DNA from: an uncultured archaeon
GTDB lineage: Archaea > Iainarchaeota > Iainarchaeia > Iainarchaeales > 1-14-0-10-31-34
Reading direction: 5' to 3'
Length of the DNA stretch: 64,000 bases
Assembly (NCBI GenBank): GCA_964442255.1
Contig: CAYTYC010000004.1
Coordinates: 1,416 to 65,415, forward strand
Below, in pieces: positions 2,636 to 36,900 of the stretch. The notes under the pieces are model-generated. The model made no database searches. It was not told the origin of the DNA and saw only the letters and a list, made by a program, of their open reading frames with translations. Numbering within the stretch: the first letter of the stretch is position 1; each line of letters opens with the position of its first letter. A program made the translations under genes and the position numbers.

Positions 2636-3197
2636 TTAGCACCATTTTTTCCTTTACTTCTTCCAGGTTTGCTTCCGTGTCCTTGCATCCGTCCTTTAAC
2701 AGCATTACCCCCTGTGCGGGAACGCCGTATTCAGCCATCTTGCTGAAACCCAAATTCACTTCGTCCTTGCACGCCAGCCCCAAGACTGCTTTGGGTTTGT
2801 ATTTTTCAGCGAGCTTTGCGAGCATGCTTCCCCCGGGAACAATGAACACGTGCCCGTAGCCCAGCTTTTTTGCCTCGTTTCTCATTATTTCAACTGGGCA
2901 GTTTTTGCATGCCGCGGTTTTCCTGCATTCAATTCCTTCTTCTCCGGGTCTTGCCTTGCATCCCTTGGGCTTTTTAAGGCAGTGGGGAAGGAAGAGCATG
3001 CGGTCCTTGAAGGGAACGCGCTTGAATTTGGCTTCATTCAGTTTGTTTCTGAGTTCAATGTGCGTGTAGGAAACAAGCCTGTCGCTTAAGCCCAGTTCTT
3101 TGCCTATTCTTTGCGCGGCGTTTGCCGCGTTTATGTGCGCGCCGGAGTCAATTAGTGAACTGACCGAGTCCCGTATTTGGTCGTAAATGGAGCCCAT
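2622..3197 (-). CDS. DUF116-family Cys-rich protein (predicted metal-binding)
   Basis: FLPHCLKKPKGCKA...C..C..C pattern typical of archaeal DUF116 proteins; 191 aa. Confidence 0.55.
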   Translation of the reverse strand: MGSIYDQIRDSVSSLIDSGAHINAANAAQRIGKELGLSDRLVSYTHIELRNKLNEAKFKRVPFKDRMLFLPHCLKKPKGCKARPGEEGIECRKTAACKNCPVEIMRNEAKKLGYGHVFIVPGGSMLAKLAEKYKPKAVLGLACKDEVNLGFSKMAEYGVPAQGVMLLKDGCKDTEANLEEVKEKMVLNGTD

Positions 3198-3599: not shown

Positions 3600-3601
3600 T
3601 T

Positions 3602-3748
3602 ACTGGCTTTTTTCTTTTCCTTTTTTTATTGCGTAATAGCCGAATATTGCAAGCAGTGCCGCGTAAAACGAATTCATTAACGCGAAAACAATAAAGATTG
3701 CGCCAGTAATAACCATCATTTTCTTTTTCGTTTCAGTTGAAACCATGC
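3602..3748 (-). CDS. Small (48-aa) single-TM membrane protein
   Basis: Translated by hand: MVSTETKKKMMVITGAIFIVFALMNSFYAALLAIFGYYAIKKGKEKSQ. Not in the ORF track because it is under 60 aa. Confidence 0.3.
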
Positions 3749-3924
3749 CAAAAAATAGTGTTTTCTGGTATTTAAGGCTTCCGAATCAGCTGGCTCTGTA
3801 GAAATAATTTATAAAGGCAGTTTTTCAGTCTCATAAACTGCAAGCATTTGGCAATTAAACGCGTTTCAAATCCCAAAAATTCACATTTCTACCCCGCCGA
3901 ATCAGCTCGAAAAAAAGAAAAAAT

Positions 3925-4180
3925 TGCCCCGGCCGGGATTTGAACCCGGGTCACGGCCTATCCCCCCACCTGCAAAACCCATATTTATAAGGGATTGAGC
4001 GTAAGCGAAATCCCTTGACGTATGCGCATGTAAACCGACAGTGGCGGTTTCCCTGAAAATTAAGGGAGGTACCGGAACCATAGGTTCTGATTCCCCCGAA
4101 GGGTATCGGAGGTATCGGAACCACGGAGTGGTTCTGATTTTGAGAGGGCCGTGTGCTTGACCGGACTACACTACCGGGGC
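3925..4180 (-). tRNA. tRNA (probably Glu, anticodon CUC) interrupted by a ~184-nt intron at or near the canonical 37/38 position
   Basis: The 5' exon at 4144-4180 reads GCCCCGG-UA-GUGU-AGUCCGGUCAA-GCAC-A-CGGCC-CUCUCA. The 3' exon at 3925-3959 reads A-GGCCG-UGAC-CCGGG-UUCAAAU-CCCGG-CCGGGGC-A. The acceptor and anticodon stems pair perfectly only when the intervening 184 nt are removed. Confidence 0.7.
3979..4052. repeat. Conserved two-hairpin element (copy 1), inside the long tRNA intron; shares a ~70-nt core with 15472..15543
   Basis: catatttataa-GGGATT(N12)AATCCC-ttGACGTATgcgcatGTAAACCGACAGTGGCGGTTTcc is near-identical to the second locus. Hairpin 2 is AAACCG/CGGTTT with a 7-nt loop. Confidence 0.7.
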
Positions 4181-4217
4181 CTCTAAGAAATGGTTCCGGG
4201 AACGCTTTAAATGGTTT

Positions 4218-4880
4218 TTGCTTGTGCTTTCTTTAATGAAGTTTAAGGCTGTTTTCTTTGACTTGGACGGAACATTGGTGGACAGCATTCCCTTGCATGC
4301 CTCTTCCTTTCACGAGCTTTTACGCGAATTGGGTTTGGAAATGCCTTTGGAGGAGCTTGTTCCAATGATTGGCCAGACCAGCCAGCAGATGTTTGAGGAA
4401 TTCAATAAAAGAAAGCCGTTGGGTGTGAGCCTGGAAAAATTTTTTGAAATGCGGAGAACTTACTTCAAGAAAGCGATTGGAGAAAAGGACATCACTTTTT
4501 CCCCCGTGTTCGGGGTTTTAAGCGAACTTAAGGGAAAAATTCCTTTGGCGCTTGTAACCAATTCCAGCCATAAAACCACTTTTAAAATAACCACGAATGA
4601 AAGGCTGAGAAGCTTTTTTGACGTGATTGTCACTGCGGGGGACGTGAAAAAACCCAAGCCAAACCCTGAACCCTTTGAGCTTGCCGCCAAAAAACTGGGT
4701 GTTCCGCTTAAGGAATGCGTTTTGGTTGGCGACGCAGTGCAGGACGCGGAGGGCGCAAAAAACGCGGGAATTCCTTTTATTGCCGTGACCACGGGAATCG
4801 CTTCCAAGGAAGAGCTGGAAAAATTCAGGCCTTTCGCTTTAATTGAGTCCCTGGAAGGGCTTATTCCACTTCTACTTTGA
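4218..4880 (+). CDS. HAD-superfamily hydrolase (subfamily IA; phosphatase or beta-phosphoglucomutase-like)
   Basis: FFDLDGTLVDS motif I, conserved T/S motif II, and a K...GDxxxD motif III (LVGDAVQD); 220 aa. Confidence 0.8.
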   Translation: MLVLSLMKFKAVFFDLDGTLVDSIPLHASSFHELLRELGLEMPLEELVPMIGQTSQQMFEEFNKRKPLGVSLEKFFEMRRTYFKKAIGEKDITFSPVFGVLSELKGKIPLALVTNSSHKTTFKITTNERLRSFFDVIVTAGDVKKPKPNPEPFELAAKKLGVPLKECVLVGDAVQDAEGAKNAGIPFIAVTTGIASKEELEKFRPFALIESLEGLIPLLL

Positions 4881-5169
4881 GTCCGCCCCTGATTTTTGCC
4901 GCCCCATTGTAGAACAGTGCCGCTATGCCTGCAAAGATATATGCTGCCGCGCACAGGCAAATAAGGTAAAAAAGCAAGGCAGCCAATGCGCCCGGCAGGT
5001 CAGCCGGAAATGTGAAAACCATTGGAAACTGAACATTTGCAGGTCTTTTGAAGGCCATCACTTGAATCAATGAAAGCACGCCTGTAATTAGCCCATAGAT
5101 TAGCGCCATATAGAAGCCCACCTTTGAGGCAACAAATGGAGGAACCCTTTTGATTTCCCTTTCAACCAT
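4861..5169 (-). CDS. Hypothetical membrane protein (3 TM helices)
   Basis: 102-aa hydrophobic ORF with an ATG start. Confidence 0.4.
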   Translation of the reverse strand: MVEREIKRVPPFVASKVGFYMALIYGLITGVLSLIQVMAFKRPANVQFPMVFTFPADLPGALAALLFYLICLCAAAYIFAGIAALFYNGAAKIRGGLKVEVE

Positions 5170-6641: not shown

Positions 6642-6733
6642 TGCCGGTGGAGGGAATTGAACCCTCGACCTCACGATTTCTCCGCTGGAAAGCGTATGAG
6701 TCGTGCACTCTAACCAGGCTGAGCTACACCGGC
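6642..6733 (-). tRNA. tRNA with anticodon CAU (elongator Met or Ile2) carrying a ~17-nt intron at 37/38
   Basis: Reverse complement reads GCCGGUG-UA-GCUC-AGCCUGGUUA-GAGU-G-CACGA-CUCAUA[CGCUUUCCAGCGGAGAA]A-UCGUG-AGGUC-GAGGG-UUCAAUU-CCCUC-CACCGGC-A. The G1-C72 pair argues against an initiator tRNA. Confidence 0.8.
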
Positions 6734-8541: not shown

Positions 8542-9257
8542 TTCTTCCTGAACAAGTGCAGTGAAAACAAGTCACCGTTGCAGCGAGTGTCCATGCCCTT
8601 AACCAATTCCAATCCCTTAAACAATTCCGCGTACTCTTCTTTTTTCCGGAAAATGCTGTACTTTGAGCCGCTTCTCCCGTTTTCTTCCCAAACGTGTTCG
8701 CAGAGAAAAATGTGCCCTCCTTTTCTGCAGATTTCCTTCATTTTTTTTGCGGGTTTCTTCAGTTCCTTTGGATTCAGTATGTGCAGCAATACAAGGGACT
8801 CGAAAACCAAGTCATATTTTTCAGGGGTTTCAAATTCAGTGAGCTTTCCTTTATGCAGTTCAATGTTTGGGGTGTGAAGAAATCTTTGGCTGGATTTTTC
8901 AAACATTATTTCGCTTGGTTCAATTCCTTCAACGCTGTATGCTTTTTTCACGAGCTCCTGCGTCATTCTTCCAGTCCCAAAACCGAGTTCAAAGACTTCT
9001 TTGTCTTCGTAAAATCCTTTCAGGAAAGAAAAAATTGTTTTCTTTAGTTTCCCGGATTCCAGCACGTTCCGCGTCCGGGAATGCCTTAAGCCCATTACCG
9101 CCTGCAATCCGTTTCTCTTTGCCCTTTCCTCCCAGTGCTTCCTTATTTCCTTTTCGGTCAGGCTTTCCTTTTCTTTCCTGCCGGGCTCAGGGCAAGTGTC
9201 TTTTTCTTTTTCGCTTAAACCGTGCACAGGCATTTTTGGTTCCTTCAAAAAAAGCAA
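8538..9257 (-). CDS. Class I SAM-dependent methyltransferase
   Basis: The VFELGFGTGRMT glycine-rich SAM-binding loop, then LHIL... and a type-11-like fold pattern; 239 aa. Confidence 0.7.
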   Translation of the reverse strand: MLFLKEPKMPVHGLSEKEKDTCPEPGRKEKESLTEKEIRKHWEERAKRNGLQAVMGLRHSRTRNVLESGKLKKTIFSFLKGFYEDKEVFELGFGTGRMTQELVKKAYSVEGIEPSEIMFEKSSQRFLHTPNIELHKGKLTEFETPEKYDLVFESLVLLHILNPKELKKPAKKMKEICRKGGHIFLCEHVWEENGRSGSKYSIFRKKEEYAELFKGLELVKGMDTRCNGDLFSLHLFRKN

Positions 9258-9290
9258 GCCTCTGGCGGGAGTCGAACCCGCTTTTGGCTA
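9257..9290 (-). pseudogene. tRNA 3'-half fragment (T-arm plus acceptor 3' strand), no matching 5' half nearby
   Basis: Reverse complement reads ..UAGCCAAAAGCGGGUUCGACUCCCGCCAGAGGC-U. The acceptor matches tRNA-Thr(UGU) at 1139 and the T-arm resembles tRNA-Thr(GGU) at 11084. Confidence 0.5.
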
Positions 9291-9344
9291 AACCCGAACA
9301 AAAACGAAATATATATATATACGTTAAAATATATGAGGTCTAGC

Positions 9345-9950
9345 ATGAAATACTGTGCCTTGATTGGATTGCTTTTTGTTGCTGTTTTGGCTAGCGGATG
9401 CAGCCAGCTTGAGCCCGTAAATTATCCGGTAGCGCAAGGCGTAAAGGTTGACGTTCAAAGCCCTCATCCTTATTCAAACGGGAAAAGCGGCAAAAGCATT
9501 GAAACAATTGTTTGGTCGCATACTTTAAAGCACCCTGGCGCCTCCTCCTTAAAACTGCACTTCAACAGGCTGGATGTTGCAGGGGAGTTAAACGTACCTG
9601 TAGTTTATGAAACAATCAATATTCCTTGTCCGCCTGAAAGTTCCCCGGAGGCAACCGAAGGAGTGCCGAGCGCCGGGGAATTAGTGTACTGCGGAGAGAA
9701 AACAGTAACAAAAGAATTTACGTTGCAGGAAATATTCATTAAAAACTACATCAATGGAGATTTTTTAATGGTAAGAGACTCACAAAACAATATCTTGGAT
9801 ATACTATTTGAGCAGCCGCCTGGAGCTGGCTTTTCCAAAACTTACGATGGTGTAGATGTGGTAGTATTGGAGCTTTACGCAGATGCCTCTGAAAACGCTT
9901 ATGGCGTACATGTGGATGAGTATTTTTATGGATTTGAACATACTGGCTGA
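9345..9950 (+). CDS. Secreted lipoprotein, hypothetical
   Basis: MKYCALIGLLFVAVLASGC lipobox signal peptide. An alternative in-frame ATG lies at 9333. The gene is bracketed by 17-bp direct repeats. Confidence 0.6.
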   Translation: MKYCALIGLLFVAVLASGCSQLEPVNYPVAQGVKVDVQSPHPYSNGKSGKSIETIVWSHTLKHPGASSLKLHFNRLDVAGELNVPVVYETINIPCPPESSPEATEGVPSAGELVYCGEKTVTKEFTLQEIFIKNYINGDFLMVRDSQNNILDILFEQPPGAGFSKTYDGVDVVVLELYADASENAYGVHVDEYFYGFEHTG

Positions 9951-10026
9951 TTCACGGCCATTTAATCTTCTTTGACTGCTTTTTCAGAAAATTAAGGGCA
10001 GGGCAAAAAAATGCAAGCCTCTGGCG

Positions 10027-10044
10027 GGAATTCACAGGAAATCT
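10027..10044 (-). repeat. Second copy of the tRNA 3'-end fragment (gcaagcctctggcggga), a direct repeat of 9254..9270
   Basis: 17/17 nt identical to 9254-9270. The downstream sequence diverges (attcaca versus gtcgaacc). Confidence 0.6.
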
Positions 10045-10089
10045 GCCCCCTTTCCAGCTGATTATAAAGGCTAAAACCGGTATTTTTGC

Positions 10090-11121
10090 GTGAATGATGC
10101 GAGAGTTGAGTTTAGGGACAACGACATTAAGAGGCAGTTTTTTGCTGAATTAAAGGAAGCCGCCAAGGCAAAAAGCTGGAAAAAGCTGGCAAACTGTTTT
10201 GGGGTCAGCCTGAAGACTTTTCAGAGCTACTTGTATGGGGGCTTCACGGTTCCAGGAAATCTCTTCAGTCGATTTATTGAAAATTTCCCGGAAGAAAAAA
10301 AGCGTTTTTATTCAGATAATGTTAATTTAAAAGATAAAAATTGGGGGGCAGTTTTGGGCGGCAAAAGAAACTATCAGCTGCACCCGGAAATTTATGAAAA
10401 AGGCAGAAAAATTGCGGCACTTAGGCGCAAAGGAAAAGAAGAAACTTTTGACTTTGATGTTCCGCTTTCAGAGGATTTGTGTGAATTTATCGGCGCATTT
10501 ATCGGCGACGGGTTTACTAATAGATATGGCCGCCATTATTGGACAGAGTTAACAGGGGACATAAATCTTGATAAAGAATATCTGACAAATGTTCTTGCAA
10601 GAAACGTGTTTTCTTTGCTTGGGGTAAATTCAACTTCAAGGCCGAATAGCGGCAATAATGCTCTAAGGCTGATTTTTCACTCAAAATTTTTGTTTAAGCT
10701 TTTAACCGAGCGTTTCAAATTTCCCGCAGGAGTGAAATGTTATACCGTAAAAATTCCTGAAGAGATAATTAATGCAGGTGGTCCTCTATTGTATGCGACA
10801 ATTAGGGGAATATTTGATACTGATGGTTGCGTTTTTTTCAGCCAAAGAAAAGTCTACAGAAAACCTTATCCAAGGGTTACGTTTCAAACGGCAAGCGAGT
10901 CACTGCATTCACAAGTGAAAGAAATTCTAAGCAAAGAGTTCAGCCTGTATTCATACAAAAACAGGGAAAAGAAGAAATTTGCTGTAGATGTTTATGGCCA
11001 CAACCAGCTTAAAAAGTGGCTTCGTTTGATAGGGTTTTCTAATAAAAGGCATCTTGATAGGTTAAACAGGTTTCAAGATGCTAAGCCCTGGGCGGGGATC
11101 GAACCCGCGACCTCATGCTAG
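10090..11121 (+). CDS. Free-standing LAGLIDADG homing endonuclease (two-motif, single-chain type)
   Basis: Motif 1 is FIGAFIGDGF and motif 2 is IRGIFDTDGCV; 343 aa. The 3' end overlaps the tRNA-Thr(GGU) gene on the opposite strand by ~37 nt. Confidence 0.8.
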   Translation: MNDARVEFRDNDIKRQFFAELKEAAKAKSWKKLANCFGVSLKTFQSYLYGGFTVPGNLFSRFIENFPEEKKRFYSDNVNLKDKNWGAVLGGKRNYQLHPEIYEKGRKIAALRRKGKEETFDFDVPLSEDLCEFIGAFIGDGFTNRYGRHYWTELTGDINLDKEYLTNVLARNVFSLLGVNSTSRPNSGNNALRLIFHSKFLFKLLTERFKFPAGVKCYTVKIPEEIINAGGPLLYATIRGIFDTDGCVFFSQRKVYRKPYPRVTFQTASESLHSQVKEILSKEFSLYSYKNREKKKFAVDVYGHNQLKKWLRLIGFSNKRHLDRLNRFQDAKPWAGIEPATSC

Positions 11122-15418: not shown

Positions 15419-15471
15419 TTGTAAATAAAGGGCTTTTTCATTTAAAAGCGTTGAGGGAACGCCCGGAACCG

Positions 15472-15543
15472 CATATTTATGGGGGATTCGACTGAAAGGA
15501 GAATCCCTCGACGTATCCTGGCGTAAACCGACAGTGGCGGTTT
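15472..15543. repeat. Conserved two-hairpin element (copy 2), immediately 3' of tRNA-Leu
   Basis: gcatatttatg-GGGGATTC(N11)GAATCCC-tcGACGTATcctggcGTAAACCGACAGTGGCGGTTTgc. Compare 3979-4052. Confidence 0.7.
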
Positions 15544-15658
15544 GCAGGGGGGAGGATTCGAACCCCCGAAGGCACTAAGCCACAGCGCCTAATCCCAATC
15601 AAACCCGTAGGTTACGATTGTCTGAACGCTGCTCGTTTGACCGCTTCGATACCCCTGC
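15543..15658 (-). tRNA. tRNA-Leu (anticodon CAG) with a ~32-nt intron and a long variable arm
   Basis: Reverse complement reads GCAGGGG-UA-UCG-AAGCGGUCAAA-CGA-G-CAGCG-UUCAGA[C..intron..]G-CGCUG-(UGGCUUAGUGCCUUCG variable arm)-GGGGG-UUCGAAU-CCUCC-CCCCUGC-A. A73 is the Leu discriminator. Confidence 0.75.
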
Positions 15659-18378: not shown

Positions 18379-18506
18379 TTTTCCTTCACTTTAAGGATTC
18401 TAAAAAGAAAAAGAATTTAAAATCAAACGAATTTTTTTTAAGGGGGTTTTGGAATTCGTAAATGTCAAAAACAGTGATTTAATAAAATGGTTTTCGATAT
18501 CCCCTT

Positions 18507-18986
18507 TCACCGGGTTTTTTTCCTTAAAAGGTACAGCACCACCACAATCAGGCACGCCAAACTTATTGCCCCGATTTCGGGAACATTCACTCCCCTTTCT
18601 TCTTTCACTGAAAAGTGCAGGGTTCTTGAGTCTTCGGATGTAGTGGCTTTGAATGTGTGTTCAGTCCAAGGCTCTAAATTATGTGTTTCCGGGTCTCCAA
18701 TGCCTGAAAATTCGTAGTCTTTGGTTTCTCCGGGGACCAGGTTGCCAAAGGATGTTTGTGCGTCAATCTGGGTTGAATCTAACCACAAAAAAACCGTGGG
18801 AATGGGCTGGCTGCCGGTGCTAATGTTTTTTACGGTCACCCAAACTGTCATGTTTTCGTTTAGCCCCACAACGTTTGACGGTTCAATGCTCATGTCAATT
18901 ATTGCAACGTCTTGCGCAAAAGCAATGGATGCAAGCAGGGGAATGAAGCCGAAAGCCAAAAGCATTTTTCCGTGCACTGGAACCAC
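18507..18986 (-). CDS. Small secreted CARDB/Ig-like surface protein with a C-terminal PEI-x-AI plus TM plus RKK sorting-like tail
   Basis: Signal peptide MLLAFGFIPLLASIAFAQD, a beta-rich ..MTVWVTVKNISTGS.. domain, and C-terminus ..VPEIGAISLACLIVVVLYLLRKKTR. Confidence 0.6.
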   Translation of the reverse strand: MVPVHGKMLLAFGFIPLLASIAFAQDVAIIDMSIEPSNVVGLNENMTVWVTVKNISTGSQPIPTVFLWLDSTQIDAQTSFGNLVPGETKDYEFSGIGDPETHNLEPWTEHTFKATTSEDSRTLHFSVKEERGVNVPEIGAISLACLIVVVLYLLRKKTR

Positions 18987-26595: not shown

Positions 26596-29500
26596 TTAAT
26601 TGCCGGTGGTAATGCAGCTTCCTTCCCCGAGCCCGAGCTCGAACTGGTTCAGGCTTTTTTTGCCTGCAGGCGCATAATTCAGGAGCGCGGTTTCATTCCA
26701 GTAAAATCCCGCCTCTGTTGCCGTGTCCTCCATGCAAACTTTTCCTTCTTCCACCAATTCAAACAGCTGTTCCAGTGCCTCTATTCCATGGTTTTGCTGG
26801 TTTAACTCCATTCCCTGCAATCCGTTTAAAACCATGAAATCATTTATTGCCGTATCCGGGGAAAAGAATTTAAGTGAAGCAGGCTTCTGCGCCTTTAACT
26901 CCATATTGGTTTCAGTGGGCGTGTAGAGGATTGTTCCAAGGTATTCGGTTCCGGGAAGGCTTACGGGTTCCCAAACCGTTTTGTACGCGTACTGGAAATT
27001 CAGCGTGTCTTTGGATGTTGCCCGTGAATCCGCCTTGTAAACTATTGCCCTTTGCGCAGGAAGCCCCCCAAAATCATAGCACTGCCCAAGCCCTTTCCAG
27101 TAGGTTAAATTGTCCCCGGCACTTTTTCCTTTCCCTGTTTCTTCCACATGGTAGGCCGCGGTCAAGGGCTTTTCGCTTTTTGTTCCCTGCACTTTCATTA
27201 TCACAGGGGTTGCAAGCGACGGGCTGAAAACCATTCTTTTTTTGTTTCCCGCGCCGCTTATTGCAAGCAGTTTTCCCCTTGTATCTGTTTCCGAGTTCAG
27301 GTAAGCCAAATCCTTTTCTGTGGCTGTTTCCAGTTCAACTGAAGCCATTTCGGCCGGCTGCCTGGTTAAGGGCTCTGTTGAAACAATGTCCCTTGTTTTG
27401 CTTAACTGCACTTCTTCACCTGTGTAAGCGGTTCCATAGCCTATCCTGTCCTCATCTAAATACCCTAACCTGCCGTTGAAGGGGAGGTAGTAGAATATGC
27501 TGTTCGGGGAGGGCTTTTGCAGGCGCTGGAATTCCACTGAAACCGTTGCTTTTGGGTTTCCATCGGCAGTGAAAAGCGCCCAGTCGTCCGCGTAATCTAT
27601 TCCGATGTCCACGGCGTACAGCCCTGCGTCAGGCAGTTCGTATTCATCAAAGTACCTGTTCCTGAAGCTGAACCTTGTCCTGTCATTATAGTATGCACCT
27701 ATTTCCTGCATTGCCTCTGTTCCGACAGCGTCATCAAGTTCAAGTGAAGGAACCTGGAAAAAAGTGCTTGTGGAATAGTATTTCACGAAATCCTTCTGGA
27801 AGTCGGCGGAATACCCGTCCCTGATCAAATATGCCTTGAAGTGCATCAGGTCGTGCATTTCTTGGAGTACCTGTTTTATTTTCTCGGAATCCGTTGAAAC
27901 GCTTTGCCCGCCAAATTTCACGCTTTCCTGGTTAACCAATTCTCCCAAGGTTGGATCAAGGGCGTTCAGGTAAACGTTTAAGGGCTCAAGGTCGTTGAAA
28001 AAAACTGTGCTGGGCTCTATCCAGCAGTTTAGGCTGGCGCTTGAGGAGTTGTTCATTAAACTGAATTCAAAGTACTTGTCGTCCTGTTTGTCCCCTTCCG
28101 CAGTGAGGTGCTCCAGCTGTATCGAGCCGGTGTAAGGGGTTTCGCTTTCCGGAAGTTCTTCAAACCTGCAGCTTGCGGATGCCGTTGCCCCGTTTTTTCC
28201 TATTCCTGTTAATTTCTTTTCGCATTCCGTTTCCCCGTTGTATAGGTATTCAGCTTCTTCCGGAACATTTAGCCTGAACAAAACATTCACGTCCTGAGCC
28301 TCCCCTGTGTTGTTTTTTACCGTTGCGCTCAAAAGCGCGTCACCGCTTTCGCCCAGGGAATTCCCTATCTCGCTTATTCCGATTTTTTCTTCCGGAACGG
28401 AATGGCTTTTGGCTTCCGCGTTTTGTTTTGCGGCTTCACTTTCCCCCGGCAGGTCTGGGCAGGCAAAATCGTATCCGTTTTCTTTCATGAAATCATTTAA
28501 TTTCGCGATTCTTTTCCACATCATTATGCTGAACTGTGTTGCGTCGCAGTAAATTGCTTCCTCATTCCCGGAATCGCATTCATTCCATGCAATTGCCTTG
28601 TCTTCAAACCCCCAGTCCAGCTTTATTTTTGGCGTTATGCCTTCCCCTGTCCTGCCTTTGATTGTTCCGTCACCGGAAGCGCAGGCAAACTGGTTTTGCT
28701 CCAGTTCCGGCAGCTTTTGTTCTTCTACCCGGGTTATAAACCTTAAATGGAATTTTTGCGTTACCTGAAGCAGGCCAAGGTCTTTCACGTCAAACATTGA
28801 GAACTTTGCGTCCGGGTTTTTTCCGTAGCTTGTCGGGTCCGCGTGAATGTGCCTTCTTGCCTTAACAGTTAAAACGTCATAGGCCGGCTCCTTTTGGCCG
28901 AGGGAAATGTTCCTGAAAATCAGCCCAACCGTTTCTTCGCCTGGCGTCTCGGAAATTTCAGGAAGGGTTTCATCCCAGTTCGGCTCCACGTCAAGCACGT
29001 TTTTTCCGTGTTCGCTTAGGCTTAGCCCGTTCCAGTCCCTGGGAATGCCGTCTCCTCCAATGCCCCGCCCGCTGAGGTTTATTGTGTAATCCCCTAATTC
29101 GTTTGTTTCCGTTTCTTTGCAGGGGTCGCTGAGCCAGGCGATTATTTCAGGGATAAAAGAGGCGCCAATGCAGGCAATTCCCCACGGGCCGACACAGAAA
29201 CCCAGCCCAATTGCGCCAAATGCCTTTGCGGCAAAGCCGGCGACAGCCACCGAATATGCCGCTGCCACGTTTCCCGCAGCCACAACCCCCGCGTGTGCGG
29301 CGGTCCATTTTGCGAGTTTTCCCGTGTTTTTCTTTCTTGCCTCATCCCATGCGCACACGCTTGCCTTCACATTAACGGTTGTGAACACGTCACTGTTCAC
29401 AAGCGTTACCGCGTCCTTTGACTCGCCTTTAAGAAGCACATATTCGTAGTTGTTTGGGTTCACCAGCGAAAACGGCTCCTTGTCTTCCGGGTCAACCAGC

Positions 29501-32500
29501 ACGTCAAGCGTTCCCAATTCAACCCAAAACGGGTTTTTTTCCGTGCGGGCCTCCACTTTTACCCCATAGATTCCGGGCACTGTGCCTCTGCTTACGGTTA
29601 CTTCAGCCGAACCGTCCTTGCTTAAGGTTATTTGTGGTGCCCCGAACCTCCCTATTTGGGGGCTTAGGCTTATCCCCCCTTCCGTTGTCCCGCCCCTGCA
29701 GCCGGGGTCATTGTGGCAGAAAATTACGTCAACCCTGGTTTTGCATTCATTGACCACGGAAAAGCTGTCGTAATGTTCGCCTGAATCCACCTTTACCGGG
29801 TTGTTGAACCCTTCCCCGATTTTCAGGCATTCCCTCAAATTTATTGCCCCAAGGTTTGCTGTAAGGGCGTTGCTGTAAACTGTGGAAAGCCCTGAATCCG
29901 TTAAAGCCTCGGCCTGCACTGTTACCTCAAAGTGCGCCTCTTTGGTGTCCTGTTCGGGGGTGAAAATCAGTGTTCCCACGTACTCCGCATCTGCCTCCAC
30001 CGAATTAAAAAAGTAAGCCGGGCGCATTTCCTGCAGTTCGTTTGTAAGGGATTTCCCGTTTTCAATCTTCAATTGTATTGTTCCGTTCGGCGTTCCTGAA
30101 GTCCAGCGTATTCTTGCGCTTAGGTTGCGGAGCGCAAGGGGCGTGTGCGTGTTTTTTTCCAGACACCCGTTGGTTATGTAGAAGTTATGTGTTATTGTTT
30201 CACTTTCTTCAATCAACTCCTCCCAGCTTGCCCCGTCAATCCCCAAACAATCATTGTTTTCCAGTTCCGCGCCTGTTCCAATGTTTGCGTTAAACCCGAC
30301 ATCAAAGCTCCAGTCAAATGTTCCGTCAGTAACCACAATATTGTACACTCCGTTCACTGACCCTGTTTCCTCTTCAGGAAGGCCTTGGTTAATTGCCGCA
30401 TAAAACTGTATCGGCGGGTCCGCAAGGCTTTTTTTGGGAATAAGCTTTCCGATGAAGCCGCTTGCCTCAATGAACCTGTTCATGCCCTGCAAGTCCAAAT
30501 AATACCCGAGATAGCTCCTTGGAAACTTTTTTCCGATGAATTCAATTTCCTTTATCGTTAGGTTGCGGTTGATTTGGTTGAATAATTCAATGTTTTCCCT
30601 GTGGCTTTTTTTCCCGAACTTTTCCAATGAAAAGCTGAGGGTTTTCGGGCTTACATCCAGAATGTTTGCGTCAACCCTTATTAGGGTTTCCGCGGGCTCA
30701 AACCCGAATTTTCGTGTCGTAAAGTAAAGCCTTGCCCCGGGGCGCATCTCCTGCGTTAACGTGAAAACGGCCTTTCCGTAATTGTCTGTCTCCAGCTCCC
30801 CGCGCTGGCCCATCAGCGCGCTCCTGTATCCGTCGATTTCCTTGTCCACGTAAACATTCGCGAACCTTACAGGAAACCCGTCTTCATCCAGCACAGTCAC
30901 CCTTATTCCCGGCCTTGTGAAGGAAAAAATCTGCGCAGGCTCAACCTGCACTTCCATTTCCTGCATTGAATCAACATCTATTTCCGCGTAATGCCCAAAC
31001 CTTTCCTCCGCTCCCATGTCTGTGAGCTCAAAAATCTTTAATGCAATCGGAACATTTCCCGAGGGAAGGAGGGCCTTGAATTTGAGCGTACCGGTTATTT
31101 TTTTTCCCTTTGAAAAATTCCCTAACTCAATTCTAGGCAGCTTATTGGTTTCATTTATTGGATTCAGTGAGCTTTTTATTGTTCTCCCGCTTGCGTTTGT
31201 CAGGGTGTACTCCAAAAACTCCAGCGCATTCAGTTCTTTCCCTGTTTTGCTTGAATTGGAAACATAAATTTTTGCGTTTTCGTAAACTTTTTCGCCGTCA
31301 TTCAGCACCTCAAACCTGTACTCATATTCCCCGTTCACTGTTGCATTAAAATTGTCTTCCGTGAAAATGTACGGCTCTTCATTCAGGTCCTTTAACCCTT
31401 CAAATGTTACGCACACGCCTTCCTGCCTGTCCGGGCTGCAGACTGGCTCTGCAGCCGGGCCGTCCACGGGAATCTCCGGCTCATCCCCTCCGCCTTCCCC
31501 GCCTTGCGGAGCGCGGACCTCAAACTCCTCGTCAAATGTTAAGGCATACAAAGGCTGTTTTCCCGCAATCCCTTCATCTTCCGGTTCCCTGTCAAGGGCC
31601 TTGTTTTCTTTTTCCCCCCACGCACGGTAATGGAAGCTTATTTTGTCCCCTGCCTCCAAACCCTCTTTTATCCTGAATTCCACCGCAATTTCGTATTCCC
31701 CTGCCTCGGCCGGAATCCAGGTAATGTTAACCCATTTTGCGTTTGAATTCGTTAAATTGTCCAATGCCAGGTCCAGGGCTTCCCCGTCAGGCGGATGATA
31801 GGAGGAACCCATAACCGAAAAGTTTCTTCCCCCCGCACTGTATCCTGTGATAAGGAGATTGTCGTTTTCAACCCTCTCCGAATCGCCTGTCCGGAAATGC
31901 ACTCCAGCCTTCCTGTAACCCGAATTTTCGGGAATGCGGAGCTTCAATACCGCCCTATACTTTTCCCCTGCGCGCAGGGAATTCACCCTGTTTTCCCCGG
32001 AATAAAACTTTATTCCTTTCTCCAGCCCGAGCTTTTGCCCCGGAACTTTCTTCAATTCCAGTTTTATGTTGATGTTGTGTGTGTAGTTGGGCTTCAGGTA
32101 GTATTCTTTGCTTATTCCTGTCTCGTAATCCTTGTGCGTTGCCTTGACGTAAATGCTTTTTCCGGCCGGAAGGCTTAACGCAATCTTCCCTTCAGGGAGC
32201 GTATGGGTTTCCTTTTCCCCTGACTTGAATACAGCCTCTATTTTTGCTCCTTTAATTGTTTCCCCGAATTCGTTTTCCACGCGAATGTTCACGTTTGCGT
32301 TGTCCATTTCCATTTTCACAAGATAGGCGACAATTGAATCCTCCTGCACACTCTTCACCGCACTTTCCCCCCTGTAAAAGCCTTTTTCCGCGTACGCGTA
32401 ATAATTCCCGGATTCAACCGCCTCAAAGACCGCAACCCCGTCCGCGTTTGTGTCTTCAGGATGGTTTCCGGAAATTCTTCCGCTTTCAACTGTCCTTCCG

Positions 32501-33957
32501 TCCTCGTACTTCAGCCAAATTTTTGTCCCCTGCACCCCTTCACCTGACTCTTTTTCCCTTGCCTCAACAACAATTACCCCTTTTTTGTGCCTCACAGGAA
32601 CAAACGGTTCATCTGGTGCAGGAGGGCAATCGGGAATCCTCTCTAATTCAACCACCCGGTTTCCGTCCGAAAAGAAAATGTTTTCCATGAAAGGGTAAAA
32701 GCATTCCGCGGAAACACTTAACTCGAGTTCTTCTTCCGGAACAACGAATTCCACGTCTCTTCCCGTGTTGCGCGTGTTTTTTGTCCCAAGGTTTTTTCCG
32801 CTTTCCGCGCCCTTCAGCAAAACCAAGGCATTTATGACCCTTTCCCCTGAATCAATGTCAAGGACAGTTATTTTCAGTATTCCCGCAACGCTTTCATGCC
32901 CTTCCGGTGGGCCGTCTGCAGGCTCTCCTCCCGTGCCGTCCCCGCCTTCGGGCGGAACAAAAGCCTTTTCCAGAACAATTCTTTTTGACTTTTCGTCCCT
33001 TGCCCCGAGGTAGATTCCTTTAACCTCTTTCTGCACGTACTCTAAGTCAGGATCGCTTACCACTACATCGTATTCCCCGGGGTCGAGCCCAAAAACAGCT
33101 GTGCCAATTGAATCAGTCCAGCCTTCCCCAATTTTTGTCCCGTACTTGAATACTTCCACAAGCATTCCCTGGAGTGCAGCGCCCTCAAAATCTTCTGCCT
33201 CAATGTAAAGCTTTCCACTTAAATCCGGATCGTTTCCATTCAACGGCTTCAGCAGAATGTCTTTCGGGTTTCCGTTTACCACAGTGCGGGAATTGAATGA
33301 CTCATATCCCGCAATTTCCGCTTTTTCCACAACCAGTGTTCCGCAGCCTTCCGGAACCTCCGCCAAAATTTTTCCGTCGTAATCCGTGTCCCTTAATACT
33401 GGTTCATCCAGTTCTTTCCCTGAACTGCATGAAACGTAAACGGTTATGCTTTTTCCTTTTATGAGCCGCGAGTCCCCCGAGTCCTTGAACTGCAATAAAA
33501 CCTGCGTTGACTGCGGTTTAATCAGCCGCAGCCTTACCTCAAATTCATGGTCCTCCAGAACAGCGTATTCTTTTTTGAAGCCCTCAAAATTTTCTGTTCC
33601 CCTTATTTCCAGGGAAATTTTTGTTCCCGGCTTGGCGTAAACGGTTGCGGTGCCGTTTTTCCCTGTCTCTTTAACTGTTTCCTGCCCGTCAATTTCCAGC
33701 CTTAATTCTATTCCCCTTAACGGGCTGTCAGCCTGGTCAACCACCTTAAAGGTCGCAATTGCCTCCAATGGCTGGATTTCCGAAGGAAAAAGGAATAAGA
33801 TTCCAAGCCCCGCAAGGGCAATAATCGCTGCAATAAATAGAACAAGCGACGGAATTACCCTGTCTATGGGGTCTATTACCTTGTATACCGGCACTTTGGC
33901 GTTTATTTTGTCCAGTAACGCGTACCATTTGTCCTCTAAGGAGGAATAAAAGCCCAT
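26596..33957 (-). CDS. Giant surface protein 1 (2453 aa): conserved cytoplasmic N-module, one TM helix, many CarboxypepD_reg/Ig-like repeats, and a C-terminal head homologous to that of giant 2
   Basis: N-terminus MGFYSSLEDKWYALLDKINAKVPVYKVIDPIDRVIPSLVLF plus TM. Repeated V.V.D..G.PL.G..V.L...G beta-sandwich modules. A Gly/Ala-rich hydrophobic segment sits at ~29140-29300. The C-terminal block carries YCDATQFS, YLIRDGYSADFQKDF and YYLPFNGRLGYLDEDRIGYG. Confidence 0.85.
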   Translation of the reverse strand: MGFYSSLEDKWYALLDKINAKVPVYKVIDPIDRVIPSLVLFIAAIIALAGLGILFLFPSEIQPLEAIATFKVVDQADSPLRGIELRLEIDGQETVKETGKNGTATVYAKPGTKISLEIRGTENFEGFKKEYAVLEDHEFEVRLRLIKPQSTQVLLQFKDSGDSRLIKGKSITVYVSCSSGKELDEPVLRDTDYDGKILAEVPEGCGTLVVEKAEIAGYESFNSRTVVNGNPKDILLKPLNGNDPDLSGKLYIEAEDFEGAALQGMLVEVFKYGTKIGEGWTDSIGTAVFGLDPGEYDVVVSDPDLEYVQKEVKGIYLGARDEKSKRIVLEKAFVPPEGGDGTGGEPADGPPEGHESVAGILKITVLDIDSGERVINALVLLKGAESGKNLGTKNTRNTGRDVEFVVPEEELELSVSAECFYPFMENIFFSDGNRVVELERIPDCPPAPDEPFVPVRHKKGVIVVEAREKESGEGVQGTKIWLKYEDGRTVESGRISGNHPEDTNADGVAVFEAVESGNYYAYAEKGFYRGESAVKSVQEDSIVAYLVKMEMDNANVNIRVENEFGETIKGAKIEAVFKSGEKETHTLPEGKIALSLPAGKSIYVKATHKDYETGISKEYYLKPNYTHNINIKLELKKVPGQKLGLEKGIKFYSGENRVNSLRAGEKYRAVLKLRIPENSGYRKAGVHFRTGDSERVENDNLLITGYSAGGRNFSVMGSSYHPPDGEALDLALDNLTNSNAKWVNITWIPAEAGEYEIAVEFRIKEGLEAGDKISFHYRAWGEKENKALDREPEDEGIAGKQPLYALTFDEEFEVRAPQGGEGGGDEPEIPVDGPAAEPVCSPDRQEGVCVTFEGLKDLNEEPYIFTEDNFNATVNGEYEYRFEVLNDGEKVYENAKIYVSNSSKTGKELNALEFLEYTLTNASGRTIKSSLNPINETNKLPRIELGNFSKGKKITGTLKFKALLPSGNVPIALKIFELTDMGAEERFGHYAEIDVDSMQEMEVQVEPAQIFSFTRPGIRVTVLDEDGFPVRFANVYVDKEIDGYRSALMGQRGELETDNYGKAVFTLTQEMRPGARLYFTTRKFGFEPAETLIRVDANILDVSPKTLSFSLEKFGKKSHRENIELFNQINRNLTIKEIEFIGKKFPRSYLGYYLDLQGMNRFIEASGFIGKLIPKKSLADPPIQFYAAINQGLPEEETGSVNGVYNIVVTDGTFDWSFDVGFNANIGTGAELENNDCLGIDGASWEELIEESETITHNFYITNGCLEKNTHTPLALRNLSARIRWTSGTPNGTIQLKIENGKSLTNELQEMRPAYFFNSVEADAEYVGTLIFTPEQDTKEAHFEVTVQAEALTDSGLSTVYSNALTANLGAINLRECLKIGEGFNNPVKVDSGEHYDSFSVVNECKTRVDVIFCHNDPGCRGGTTEGGISLSPQIGRFGAPQITLSKDGSAEVTVSRGTVPGIYGVKVEARTEKNPFWVELGTLDVLVDPEDKEPFSLVNPNNYEYVLLKGESKDAVTLVNSDVFTTVNVKASVCAWDEARKKNTGKLAKWTAAHAGVVAAGNVAAAYSVAVAGFAAKAFGAIGLGFCVGPWGIACIGASFIPEIIAWLSDPCKETETNELGDYTINLSGRGIGGDGIPRDWNGLSLSEHGKNVLDVEPNWDETLPEISETPGEETVGLIFRNISLGQKEPAYDVLTVKARRHIHADPTSYGKNPDAKFSMFDVKDLGLLQVTQKFHLRFITRVEEQKLPELEQNQFACASGDGTIKGRTGEGITPKIKLDWGFEDKAIAWNECDSGNEEAIYCDATQFSIMMWKRIAKLNDFMKENGYDFACPDLPGESEAAKQNAEAKSHSVPEEKIGISEIGNSLGESGDALLSATVKNNTGEAQDVNVLFRLNVPEEAEYLYNGETECEKKLTGIGKNGATASASCRFEELPESETPYTGSIQLEHLTAEGDKQDDKYFEFSLMNNSSSASLNCWIEPSTVFFNDLEPLNVYLNALDPTLGELVNQESVKFGGQSVSTDSEKIKQVLQEMHDLMHFKAYLIRDGYSADFQKDFVKYYSTSTFFQVPSLELDDAVGTEAMQEIGAYYNDRTRFSFRNRYFDEYELPDAGLYAVDIGIDYADDWALFTADGNPKATVSVEFQRLQKPSPNSIFYYLPFNGRLGYLDEDRIGYGTAYTGEEVQLSKTRDIVSTEPLTRQPAEMASVELETATEKDLAYLNSETDTRGKLLAISGAGNKKRMVFSPSLATPVIMKVQGTKSEKPLTAAYHVEETGKGKSAGDNLTYWKGLGQCYDFGGLPAQRAIVYKADSRATSKDTLNFQYAYKTVWEPVSLPGTEYLGTILYTPTETNMELKAQKPASLKFFSPDTAINDFMVLNGLQGMELNQQNHGIEALEQLFELVEEGKVCMEDTATEAGFYWNETALLNYAPAGKKSLNQFELGLGEGSCITTGN

Positions 33958-33985: not shown

Positions 33986-36900
33986 TTATTGAATACAGGT
34001 TTCTTCTATATTAAGCTTTTGTATCACCGGTTCAAGGGGTTCCGCAACCGTTTCAGGATTCCACCAGAATTCCGCCAGCACTTCACTTTTCGTGTCAGTC
34101 AGGCACACCTTTTCCTGTTCCATTAAGTCAAACAGGTCTTCAACTGTCTTGACTTCATCTGACCTGAAGCCTGAAAGCGTTGTCGCGCCTGTAATATTTT
34201 CCTCCACGGCTGTGTGGAATTTCAGGGTTCCGCTTTTTCTTGCAACACTTAATTTTGAAACCGCTTCCTGCGGGGTGAAGAAAATGGTTTGCATGAACAC
34301 TTTCCCGTACTTCACCGGGTCATTCCAATGGAAACCGTATTCGTACAAGTCGCGTGAAAGAGGGGTGGAGCTTCCATGGGTGTCGGGAACCTCAAACAAG
34401 TCGTTTGGCGCATCGCCGAAATCCCTGCACGCGTTTTCCCCTTCCGGAAGGCCAACCCATTTTGTTAAGCCGTTGTCTCCCAGGTTTTGCGCTTCCCCGT
34501 CAACTGTTGCGGTGTAGAAAGCGTAAACTGACTCTGTTCCCGTGTCCTCTATTTCCATTACAACCGAGGTTGCCTTGGACGGCGAAAAGTCCATTGAAGT
34601 CAGTTCATCGTTGTTTCTTTTTACTTCCAGTATTACTCCCCTTTTATCCATGTTTAAAGCCTTAAGCGAGTCCTCCACCTTTGTTTCCAGCGTGTGCACT
34701 TGGGCCTGCCCCTGCGCGCTTGATGTATGCACAACATCCCCTGTGTTGTTTATGTTTATTTCTTCTCCGCTGAAATTCACTCCATAACCTATCCTGTCGT
34801 TGTCCATTCCAATCCTTCCGTTGAATGGAAGGTAATAGAACGGGGAGGGAGGCCATGCGTCCGCCTTCTGGTTCAGGTGAACCGTTATTTTCGCGTTCGG
34901 CTGCCCGCCAACAAACAGGGTGTAGCTTTCGTCGTTGAAGCTGATTTCAATTTCCACTTCATACAGGCCGGGCTTCCTTATTGGGGCGTTTACGCTCAGC
35001 ATTTTTGCCGCGTAATCGAATTCAAACAGGCTTGGGTTGTTGAAGTATGCCCCCAATCCTTCGTTTCCCATGTAGAATTCCGGCGCCTCAAAGAATGCGG
35101 AGGTTGTCGCGTATGAATGGAAGTCTTTCTGGAAGTCTGCGGAATAGCCGTCCCTTATAAGGTATGCGTTGAATTTGTACAACTGCCTTGCCTTTTCCTT
35201 TTGAATCGGGTCCAAAACTTCCCCTGATTTTTCCATTTCCTCAAAGAATTTCGGCAAAGTCAGCGTGGAATAAGCGCCGCATATTGCCCCGCTTGGGCAG
35301 TACGCCCCCATTGTTTCCAGCACCCCGTTTTCTCCAACGAGTTTATTGATTTTTTTCAGTATTTCCGTGCTTAACTGTGTTGCGTCGCAGTAAATGTAGT
35401 CCTCGTTTCCTTCATCGCACCGGTAGTCGCCGGTTTCCGCGTTATGCAAATCCCAGCGCCAGTCAAACTTTACCCTTGGAACAGCGTTTGCCCCTGTGCT
35501 TCCTGTCTTGTTTCCGAGCCTGCATTCCCCGTAGCCCTGGCCGTGGACCGGAATGTCGCTTTCATCATATGAAAGGAACTCCAGATTAAAGTATTTGTCA
35601 ACTTTTTCTGTCCTGTCCACAAGCCTGTTTGCAAATTCATCCAGCCTGTTTTCTGCAGACATTTCCTCAAAGTCTTCCAGGTCGTCTTCATCCAGTTTTG
35701 CGTTGTCCTTGTGCTTGTAGAAGAACTGGGTTCCCGTGACTTCCAGAACCCTGAACAAAGGCCTTAACGGGTCTTCTTGCTTAAGGTTTCCTGTGTTAAT
35801 GAATTTTAACTCTATTTCTTCAAATGTTTCCCCGCCTTCCACCGTGTTTTCCCCCACAAAAGAGGCTTTTGTGTCCCCGCGTTCTACTGTGATCCCGTCT
35901 TCCACTATTTTTTCCGGCAAAACCTGCTTGAATAACTCCCATTCATCCTGTATTTCCACATCCGCCTGCAGTGAATTAATTATCACCGGTTCCTGGTTAA
36001 TGTAATTAATTACTGTATTGGTTGCAAACCCGATTATCCCTGTCCATATTGGCCCCAAACCGGTGCTAAACCCTGGAAGCGCCCCAAGAATGTTTCCAAC
36101 CAACGGAATCCCTGAAAGCAGTTCAGTGACAAACATTCCGGTCGGCTGAACCGTGGCGGAAACCAGTCCTGTTGGTTGTGGGGATTCTTTTGGTGCAACA
36201 CCGCTTTCCGGAGGGCTTTCACCCGATTCAGTTTCTTCGCTGCCACTGTCTCCGCCACTTATGGCGGCTCCTTCTTCCGTGCTTTTGGTGTCAGGCGACC
36301 CTGTTGAAGTTTCCCCTGTTGTCGTGCTTGTAGTTGAACTTGTTCCACCTGGAGGCCCGTGCTTGTCTGGATCTGTTTCACCCACGGTTAGACCTAAGTT
36401 TGGGTTGGTTAGGGATGGATTGCTTTCTGGAATTTCCGGAAGGTCTAGGTTAATCGGCGTTCTACCACGTGAGTCTGGCTCCACAACTTTTTCCTTGCCA
36501 TTCTTGCCTAAGTCTGCTTCCCTGGGTTTTTTTGTTCCATTCAATTTGTTTTGAATGAAGTCCGTGGCAATGTGCACCCCGACTCCAATCAGTGTCGGGA
36601 TTATTGCGTCTTTCATTGCTTTCCAGATGCTTTTAACGTCAAACTCCAGTTCAACTTCTTTTGAATGGCAGTAATTCTGGACTGTAAGCGTGTCATAACC
36701 GTCGTACATTACATCCGGGTCGTCGTAAATGTCCAAAAAGTATTTGCTTAGCCTGATGCAGCCAATTCCCTCCAGCTCCGCGTCAATTCTCTGGATTTCC
36801 CTTCCGCTCACCTCCCCCGCGCCTGTAACTTTCACGTAAATCGGGTAAAGCCCCGGAAACTTGCCTGAATCATGGAAAACCGTTACCTCCTGTTCGCCTG

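Follow-up and report, generated by a model that had tools for sequence, protein, structure and literature searches.

Does an archaeal tRNA gene that is interrupted by a 181-nucleotide (nt) insert still encode a working tRNA, and where does such a long insert come from? The question is raised by a 64,000-nt stretch of contig CAYTYC010000004.1 (GenBank assembly GCA_964442255.1, positions 1,416 to 65,415) from an uncultured archaeon of the Iainarchaeales. The minus strand of this stretch, here called the window, carries a gene for tRNA-Glu(CUC), plus-strand positions 3925-4180 being its reverse complement. An earlier note on this DNA had listed two tRNA halves (acceptor, anticodon stem and T arm) 184 nt apart and had called them tRNA-Glu with the anticodon CUC. 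All of the listed elements are present, the call is borne out by ARAGORN in intron mode and by colinear intronless orthologues, and a long intron does intervene, its length being 181 nt (4140..3960) and not 184 nt. Our reading, to which we assign a probability of about 0.72, is that of a working tRNA-Glu(CUC) with a spliceable intron at position 37/38, inflated by tandem duplication and by a captured tRNA-associated cassette of probable mobile or integrative origin. Taken by itself, the functional gene with its spliceable intron is very strongly indicated by the sequence, and a passenger or mobile origin of the cassette appears to be an even call.

Archaeal tRNA introns measure 11-129 nt, with medians of 12-25 nt, and eukaryotic ones 6-133 nt (PMC4090602). 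Against this range the intron is unusually long, as the earlier note had held, and its 181 nt extend the range given in reviews for both domains. The mechanism class is well known; unusual are the length, the invisibility to standard finders and a composite make-up that links an intron, a trailer and an insertion in another lineage. Misses and mis-calls of this sort are failures of the type that underlies the 'incomplete tRNA sets' described for DPANN archaea (PMC5829648), and in genomes of this group a scan for long introns is advisable before a tRNA is declared missing.

Gene structure, splice sites and transcription signals

The gene and its signals are arranged as follows.

4205..4212, both strands: putative archaeal TATA-type box, ATTTAAAG on the minus and CTTTAAAT on the plus strand, assigned by position and consensus only
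4180-4141, minus strand: 5' exon of tRNA-Glu(CUC), tRNA positions 1-37
4140-3960, minus strand: intron, 181 nt at the canonical position 37/38
3960..3970, minus strand: G-run GGUGGGGGGAU at the 3' end of the intron, which in constrained folds forms the central helix of the splice motif
3959-3925, minus strand: 3' exon, tRNA positions 38-73, CCA not encoded
3909..3924, minus strand: T-rich tract AAUUUUUUCUUUUUUU (T6/T7) directly 3' of the tRNA discriminator, a likely oligo-T terminator

Exons and intron are those of ARAGORN with introns allowed, which returns one tRNA, tRNA-Glu (ctc) c[3925,4180] i(41,181). In its default mode ARAGORN misses the gene, and so does Rfam at the gathering threshold. 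The 5' exon is colinear with two genes that have no intron (L008:14346-14420 and L010:4294-4366, where L numbers denote related loci), and the 3' exon is also placed by alignment to the orthologues. Read from the sequence, the 5' exon consists of the acceptor strand GCCCCGG (positions 1-7), UA at positions 8-9, the D arm GUGU-AGUCCGGUCAA-GCAC, A at position 26, the anticodon stem strand CGGCC and the loop CUCUCA through position 37, where the intron begins. After the intron follow A38, the anticodon stem strand GGCCG, the variable region UGAC (4 nt), the T arm CCGGG-UUCAAAU-CCCGG, the acceptor strand CCGGGGC and the discriminator A.

Removal of the intron restores a complete cloverleaf tRNA. 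The spliced product of 75 nt aligns without gaps across all 75 columns to the intronless L008 orthologue, and the 22 pairs of a three-sequence consensus cloverleaf are all kept in it, 4 of them with compensatory changes. The junctions read CUCUCA / AAAUCAG...GGGGAU / AGGCCG (exon 1 / intron / exon 2). The run of A permits a break at 37/38 or 38/39 only, and a bulge at the 3' site arises only with 37/38, the recognised canonical intron position. Gene and intron together recur at 100% identity in an independent Logan assembly of run SRR7048218; the locus is therefore not an assembly artefact. The gene order tRNA-Arg, tRNA-Leu, TrkH, tRNA-His, HisRS, ribose-5-phosphate isomerase, tRNA-Met, tRNA-Glu(CUC), tRNA-Thr(UGU) is a conserved one. 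Since the synteny Arg-Leu-His-HisRS-...-Met-Glu-Thr is shared with L008 and L097, the window holds the tRNA-Glu(CUC) locus of its lineage. No second tRNA-Glu(CUC) is found within the 64-kb window at the conserved syntenic position.

Folds of the junctions were computed with the cloverleaf stems enforced. In these folds GGGG (3965-3962) pairs with C32 U33 C34 U35 of the anticodon loop (4146-4143) in a central 4-bp helix (C-G, U.G, C-G, U.G), and the 3' splice site lies inside a 3-nt bulge made of A-U (3961-3960) and A38 (3959), beside the 5-bp anticodon stem. On the 5' side, C36 A37 / A A stand opposite G G, followed by an AUC/GGU helix. Compared with the strict bulge-helix-bulge (BHB) motif, written hBHBh', the 3' half is strict (5-bp stem, 3-nt bulge, 4-bp helix) and the 5' half relaxed, and as a whole the modelled splice sites correspond to the relaxed bulge-helix-loop type instead of the strict one. 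Relative to the minimum-energy fold of the arm, the canonical arrangement, when forced, is less stable by 3.2 kcal/mol. The earlier note had looked to a BHB-compatible structure at the junctions; one can be drawn, and of its two halves the 5' one falls short of the strict form. According to the folds, the two other intron-bearing tRNAs of the window (Met, Leu) likewise have imperfect splice motifs. With all three introns alike in this respect, the endonuclease of this organism must accept relaxed motifs. DPANN endonucleases with an L3 loop have been linked to increased tRNA gene disruption (PMC5829648). The relaxed motifs agree with this published link between loop-bearing DPANN EndA and tRNA disruption.

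Canonical archaeal tRNA introns at 37/38 with a BHB were reportedly described by Marck and Grosjean in 2003. Introns of this class, processed by EndA and RtcB (PMC4090602), are like the present one in position, in the pairing of the anticodon loop with the intron 3' end, in the 3-nt bulge with 4-bp helix and in yielding a normal 75-nt tRNA. The present intron differs from them in its 181 nt, in a 5' site within a 4x2 loop, and in an interior of tandem repeats and a cassette that also occurs outside introns.

The box at 4205..4212 is common to the back-to-back genes for tRNA-Glu (minus) and a HAD hydrolase (plus, ATG 4236), and its first T stands 31 nt ahead of tRNA position 1. The other tRNAs of the window have TTTAAA boxes at -31 to -35, and leaderless open reading frame (ORF) starts have theirs at about -30. 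The intron is without any run of at least five T, the longest being T4. Promoter box, T-run and T5-free intron would fit a single transcription unit. A scan for bacterial-type promoters and terminators, a type of scan not applicable to archaea, found nothing. Small ORFs across the intron (57-59 aa) were rejected as implausible; they overlap the exons.

On these signals, transcription would start about 31 nt downstream of the TATA box at 4205-4212, pass through the intron and end at the T-run after 3925, giving a pre-tRNA of about 256 nt. The intron would fold locally into about six hairpins, and pairing of its 3'-terminal G-run with anticodon-loop positions 32-35 would leave the 3' site within a 3-nt bulge and bring the 5' site to lie inside a small internal loop. 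EndA, the tRNA splicing endonuclease, would then cut both sites of this relaxed BHB, and an RtcB-type ligase would join the exons to the 75-nt tRNA. The intron would be set free, probably as a circle; excised archaeal tRNA introns are known to circularise (PMC12558985). Cleavage, ligation and circularisation are modelled here on the established archaeal pathway (PMC4090602; PMC12558985).

It might be objected that mobile DNA inserted in the anticodon loop has inactivated the gene and that the BHB-like pairing is fortuitous. The insert is indeed young, being absent from most relatives, and the 5' half of the splice motif is imperfect. The region is littered with scars of tRNA-targeted rearrangement (9254-9299 and 10013-10028 in the window; duplicated tRNA 3' ends in L097 and L008), and four bases placed 2 nt ahead of the junction would pair with CUCU by chance in about one of 64 cases. 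A pseudogene nevertheless seems improbable to us. Both exons are intact and give a perfect cloverleaf of orthologue-like sequence; the insert lies exactly at the canonical 37/38, promoter and terminator are intact, and no other tRNA-Glu(CUC) occupies the conserved syntenic position in the window. The related locus L009 has an intron at the same site, and the other intron-bearing tRNAs of the window show equally relaxed motifs.

Split tRNA-Glu genes have reportedly been described by Randau et al. (2005) in Nanoarchaeum equitans, and with them the present gene has in common the superphylum, the tRNA-Glu identity and the break point at 37/38. One may accordingly ask for an incipient split gene, in which the TATA-like UUAUAAAUA within the cassette would drive a separate 3'-half transcript to be joined in trans. 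The box spans -31 to -23 from the 3' exon, a spacing like that of the real tRNA promoters of the window, and a split tRNA-Glu is said to be known from this other DPANN archaeon. We consider this very improbable. Unlike the Nanoarchaeum genes, the present halves are contiguous, following each other on a single strand at a distance of 181 nt, and share one promoter and one terminator, no terminator standing between them; separate units with promoters of their own are not seen, the sole hint being the TATA-like box at -31 of the 3' exon. The same box stands in the tRNA-Leu trailer copy of the cassette with no gene half after it. It is near-palindromic and so ambiguous in orientation, departs from the local TTTAAA consensus and has no A-rich/GC upstream element as the local promoters do.

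Composition of the intron and the two-hairpin cassette

The working gene with its spliceable intron being our reading, the question of what fills the intron remains. Three parts can be told apart: two tandem hairpin units of about 45 nt, a two-hairpin cassette of 74 nt, and the G-run.

4139-4093, minus strand: tandem unit 1 (47 nt), hairpin AAUCAGAACC-ACUCCGU-GGUUCCGAU, then a small hairpin CCUCCG...CGGGGG
4092-4050, minus strand: tandem unit 2 (43 nt), hairpin AAUCAGAACC-UAU-GGUUCCGGU, then a hairpin UCCCU-UAAUUUUC-AGGGA
3976..4049, minus strand: cassette copy A (74 nt), inside the Glu intron; covariance model 109.6 bits
4050-4032, minus strand: hairpin 1 of copy A, AAACCG-CCACUGU-CGGUUU, then a linker ending AUACGUC
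4016-3989, minus strand: hairpin 2 of copy A, AAGGGAUU-UCGCUUACGCUC-AAUCCCUU, homologous to L097:18463-18437 (minus)
3990-3980, minus strand: TATA-like UUAUAAAUAUG of copy A
15542..15467, minus strand: cassette copy B, directly 3' of the tRNA-Leu(CAG) discriminator, ending about 50 nt before the TrkH start codon

The isolated intron folds to -63.5 kcal/mol (z = -3.8 against shuffles), with about six local hairpins in the predicted structure. The two tandem units are identical in 34 of 47 aligned columns. Each opens with a 9-bp hairpin AAUCAGAACC-loop-GGUUCCGRU that bears a conserved A.C mismatch, followed by a hairpin of 5-6 bp. The internal direct repeats seen by the earlier note are real and belong to this 47 + 43 nt tandem duplication: AATCAGAACC is found at 4139-4130 and 4092-4083, and GGTTCCGRTACCTCC at 4122-4108 and 4079-4065, both exact. 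The start of unit 2 resembles that of the tRNA-Leu intron (AAUCGUAACCUACGG against AAUCAGAACCUAUGG, identical at 12 of 15 nt; 18 of 2000 shuffles were as good, p about 0.01).

Paralogous or 'transposed' tRNA introns were reportedly found in Thermoproteales by Fujishima et al. (2010). As there, related intron material would occur in different tRNA genes of one genome through lineage-specific gain; here, however, the similarity is short (12/15 nt, p about 0.01) and the cassette, as the best-shared piece, is part of an intron at one gene and of a 3' trailer at the other. Wider derivations of the 5' half of the intron were tried and set aside. Descent from a decayed tRNA-Leu intron plus 3' exon is unproven (colinear global alignment, z = 1.3, not significant), and descent from a decayed Glu 3' exon, as a relic of a left attachment site (attL), is not borne out by any similarity (z about 0). 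When the stretches of 60 nt that precede the two cassettes were compared locally, the weak similarity to the tRNA-Leu 3' half was borderline, with p of 0.035 or 0.15 depending on scoring. GGTTCCGG was rejected as a regulatory motif; its 10 occurrences in the window are mostly in coding sequence and not specific.

The earlier note had proposed that the intron might be a C/D-box-like RNA. Precedent exists in tRNA-Trp introns of Euryarchaeota (PMC4090602) and the length would be adequate. The transcribed strand of the intron has neither a C box (RUGAUGA, 1 mismatch allowed) nor a D box (CUGA), on the antisense strand CUGA occurs three times, again with no C box, and a permissive Rfam scan (E <= 10) matched no family to the intron, no snoRNA or sRNA included. 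Guide complementarity to the cognate tRNAs reaches 3-5 nt at most, no better than to a non-cognate tRNA. At the level of sequence the proposal is refuted, and we give it next to no weight. Neither intron nor cassette has an H/ACA signature. The tRNA-Trp(CCA) intron of Haloferax and other Euryarchaeota, with its nested C/D-box guide, is like the present one in being long, in nesting a structured module and in its release and probable circularisation by splicing enzymes. It differs in that here there are no C/D boxes and no guide complementarity to the own tRNA, the host tRNA is another one and the module is not conserved in relatives.

The earlier note had further pointed to a two-hairpin element next to tRNA-Leu, and copy B at 15542..15467, with a 21-nt exact match to copy A, bears this out. 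The copies lie 11 kb apart on the same strand in different contexts, intron and 3' trailer. They are identical at 59 of 76 positions (78%, the 21-nt match included), and a covariance model scores both with 109.6 bits and finds no further match in the window. Identical in A and B are hairpin 1 with its loop, AUACGUC, the stems of hairpin 2 and the motif AUAAAUAUG; almost completely different are the 6-nt linker and the loop of hairpin 2. Covariation is uninformative with two copies (one compensatory pair, one broken pair). The anticodon-like 5-mers in the loops of hairpin 2 (CUCAA, UUCAG) were discarded as chance, equally long matches being found to a non-cognate tRNA. The invariant AUAAAUAUG is a near-palindromic TATA-like box (3980-3990 and 15471-15480, both minus strand), which in the Glu intron covers -31 to -23 from the 3' exon. 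Its plus-strand reading together with the flanking letters, GGAACCGCATATTTATGG in the case of tRNA-Leu, is similar to the promoter of the HAD gene, GGGAACGCTTTAAATGG.

Beyond the window, a structure-aware pattern scan for the cassette had no match in GTDB genomes, only 6 chance matches in JGI metagenomes and none in IMG/VR, and two covariance models, R1 and R2, added no member, whether from the window or from the roughly 280 kb of related archaeal loci that were scanned. One relative of hairpin 2 did emerge at L097. There an intronless tRNA-Glu(CUC) is directly followed by a 76-nt two-hairpin filler and then by an exact second copy of the last 20 nt of the tRNA, the direct repeats lying at 18415-18434 and 18511-18530. 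On the strand opposite the tRNA the filler reads AAGCCAUU-UCGCUUCGCUC-AAUGGCUU, with 23 bases in common with hairpin 2 of the Glu cassette (local alignment z = 5.5; 1 of 3000 shuffles as good). Two adjacent stem pairs are swapped, GG:CC to CC:GG, and the loop is shorter by one base. Weaker resemblances occur at syntenic intergenic spots without tRNA-Glu: the loop motif UCGCUUCGCUCAA in L095, and in L094 a hairpin UAGCCG-CCACAGC-CGGCUG like hairpin 1. Together with L097 they tie the element to tRNA loci in more than one lineage and in either orientation.

To judge from its sequence, L097:18415-18530 looks like the scar of a site-specific insertion at a tRNA, and the duplicated tRNA 3' end that bounds the hairpin suggests debris of a mobile or integrative element. 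Archaeal attachment-site (att) scars of integrative elements are comparable in that the L097 hairpin sits between 20-nt copies of the tRNA-Glu 3' end and that tRNA 3' remnants are found in the window and in L008 (4852-4897). They differ from the window, where neither the intron nor either copy of the cassette is bordered by a duplicated piece of tRNA, the vicinity holds no integrase gene and the 5' part of the intron is unlike the 3' exon; the flanking tRNA repeat typical of such scars is thus seen only with the homologous element of L097. The terminal inverted repeats with target duplication that mark a miniature inverted-repeat transposable element or an insertion sequence are likewise missing. 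As to the homing scar that the earlier note had considered, no remnant of a homing endonuclease is present in the intron; what can be kept of the idea is that part of the intron belongs to a tRNA-associated cassette family whose L097 copy is bounded by a duplicated tRNA 3' end.

Could the cassette, or the whole intron, instead be a structured small RNA with a function of its own, which exploits tRNA processing to be released? Pre-tRNA-Glu would yield it through the splicing endonuclease, and the pre-tRNA-Leu trailer through RNase Z, in analogy to the C/D-box RNA in archaeal tRNA-Trp introns. Both window copies lie on the transcribed strand, and copy B starts exactly at the RNase Z site with no T-run ahead of it. 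Conservation comes in blocks that include the whole loop of hairpin 1, the structure of the intron is strong (z = -3.8), and in L097 hairpin 2 keeps its loop and covaries in its stem. Yet the homologous L097 hairpin is on the strand opposite the tRNA, and the element is not found in the closest relatives. Rfam families and C/D or H/ACA signatures are lacking, the variable segments match or complement the cognate tRNA no better than a non-cognate one, and covariation is uninformative with two or three copies only. Analogy and sequence thus leave a functional small RNA unlikely, if the most serious of the alternatives.

In the reading that we prefer, the extra length would not be needed for splicing. 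It would stem from duplication of a unit of about 45 nt, related to the tRNA-Leu intron, and from capture of the 74-nt cassette. The cassette would be one of a few related insertions associated with tRNA genes, and most likely a remnant that a mobile or integrative element left behind; since the endonuclease reads only the structure at the boundaries, such a passenger would be tolerated. The make-up of the intron shows a concrete route of tRNA-intron growth, by tandem duplication and by a cassette that is also found in a tRNA trailer and, in another lineage, in an insertion beside a tRNA, and offers a modest, testable lead on the origin and growth of tRNA introns. If the cassette is mobile, the locus has a bearing on the source of archaeal tRNA introns and on their relation to tRNA-integrating elements. 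A bolder version makes the cassette a non-autonomous mobile element with tRNA genes as its targets, which near the anticodon loop is carried as, or converted into, a spliceable BHB intron. We hold this to be doubtful, somewhat more so than the small RNA. If true, the locus would be a snapshot of the birth and enlargement of an archaeal tRNA intron from mobile DNA and maybe a step towards split tRNA genes, the cassette bringing a TATA-like box to -31 of the 3' exon.

Several findings weigh against the reading of a spliceable intron enlarged by a captured mobile cassette. The 5' splice site (C36 A37 / A) lies in a 4x2 internal loop in place of a clean 3-nt bulge, the outer helix h' is no longer than 3 bp (AUC/GGU), and EndA and RtcB were not found among the 20 annotated window ORFs scanned. 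For the cassette, collections of viral, phage and plasmid sequences contained no relative that could be detected, and a blastn comparison of the intron with phages and plasmids gave none either. A repeat scan of 3600-4400 found no inverted repeat at the ends of intron or cassette; the cassette is flanked only by the gapped, weak direct repeats UUUUCAGGG and UUUUGCAGGUGG, seen by eye, with no clear target duplication. Hairpin 2 has been retained with compensatory stem changes across lineages whose HisRS is only 56% identical. The differences between copies A and B are clustered (runs test p = 0.03), with identical blocks of 21, 7 and 9 nt between fully diverged stretches, and such mosaic conservation, like the retention of hairpin 2, argues against a purely neutral passenger. 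It is from context only that the cassette takes the label of a mobile element.

Introns and rearrangements in related loci and along the window

The relatives available for comparison are distant. Among GTDB genomes the best HisRS relatives reach 45-50% identity (Candidatus Iainarchaeum and other DPANN metagenome-assembled genomes), in a larger protein collection 66%, and of 5.8 billion proteins none matches the flanking HAD hydrolase at more than 38% identity. With so few close relatives of either protein, the lineage is poorly sampled. The best relatives by TrkH and HisRS, 65-66% identical, have neither the cassette nor the Leu intron. At the syntenic tRNA-Glu(CUC) the loci compare as follows.

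Window: 181-nt intron at 37/38
L009:15395-15525: 56-nt intron at the same 37/38 site, spliced product 75 nt, mis-called by ARAGORN as Ser(cga)
L008, L010 and L097: no intron

The 56-nt intron of L009 was tried as a homologue of the window intron, and the similarity is not significant (z = 0.8). In L097 the tRNA-His(GUG) at 2996-3155 has an 87-nt intron at the canonical position with two long hairpins. Long, hairpin-rich introns recur in the group, and 181 nt is the extreme.

Other tRNA features of the window are these.

15543..15658, minus strand: tRNA-Leu(CAG) with an intron of about 32 nt (about 15621-15590); Rfam tRNA, 40 bits with a 34-nt insert
6642-6733, minus strand: tRNA with anticodon CAU (Met, or Ile2 if modified) with a 17-nt intron; Rfam 60.6 bits
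9254-9299, minus strand: tRNA-Thr 3'-end remnant with complete T arm, acceptor strand and T-run
10013-10028, minus strand: second tRNA-Thr 3'-end remnant, last 16 nt only

The tRNA-Leu intron is one long hairpin related to the Glu tandem units. Its boundaries are ambiguous (36/37 or 37/38), and its motif consists only of a stem, a 4x6 loop and a 10-bp hairpin. The gene is mis-called, in default ARAGORN as a 68-nt tRNA-Ala(ggc) and in intron mode as tRNA-Pyl(cta). Its orthologues in L008, L090, L091 and L095 have no intron; in L090, the closest by TrkH (65% identity), a T-run directly follows the intronless tRNA-Leu and there is no cassette. From the absence of intron and cassette in L008, L010, L090 and L097, it follows that this lineage acquired the two introns and the cassette after it had parted from the sampled relatives. 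In the tRNA(CAU) the central helix contains an A.G mismatch; default ARAGORN misses the gene and intron mode mis-calls it tRNA-Ser(aga). The same intron-bearing arrangement of tRNA(CAU) is found in L095 and L096.

The two tRNA-Thr remnants share the exact repeat CCCGCCAGAGGCTTGC and flank an ORF at 9333-9950 (+). An intact tRNA-Thr(GGU) is not in the window, nor was a 5' half found there; the remnants may be the trace of an integration, or belong to a gene that is split or has been relocated. After HisRS the relatives have tRNA-Thr(GGU), and the window has tRNA-Ser(GCU) in that place. A direct repeat CCGAATCAGCT(G/C)G occurs twice just downstream of tRNA-Glu (3781-3809 and 3897-3925, plus strand), and AATCAGCTGG also inside the region of the tRNA-Thr remnants (10054-10063, minus strand); this 10-mer is not enriched window-wide (9 found, 6.5 expected). 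In L008, an Iainarchaeum metagenome-assembled genome, a tRNA-Leu 3'-half fragment (variable arm, T arm and acceptor; 4852-4897) follows the intact tRNA-Leu(CAG) by about 20 nt. Being closer to the tRNA-Leu of the window than to that of L008 itself, it is probably an old att remnant.

An ORF of 343 aa at 10090-11121 (+) carries a LAGLIDADG_3 domain (E = 3e-7), and its end overlaps the tRNA-Ser(GCU) on the opposite strand. L091 has a LAGLIDADG_3 ORF in the same place and orientation next to HisRS, and a second one next to TrkH; on this account the window ORF is a conserved neighbour and not obviously a homing endonuclease of recent arrival. Four consecutive giant ORFs of about 2430-2710 aa, all on the minus strand (26596-33957, 33986-41290, 41474-49336 and 51334-59469), take up nearly half of the window.

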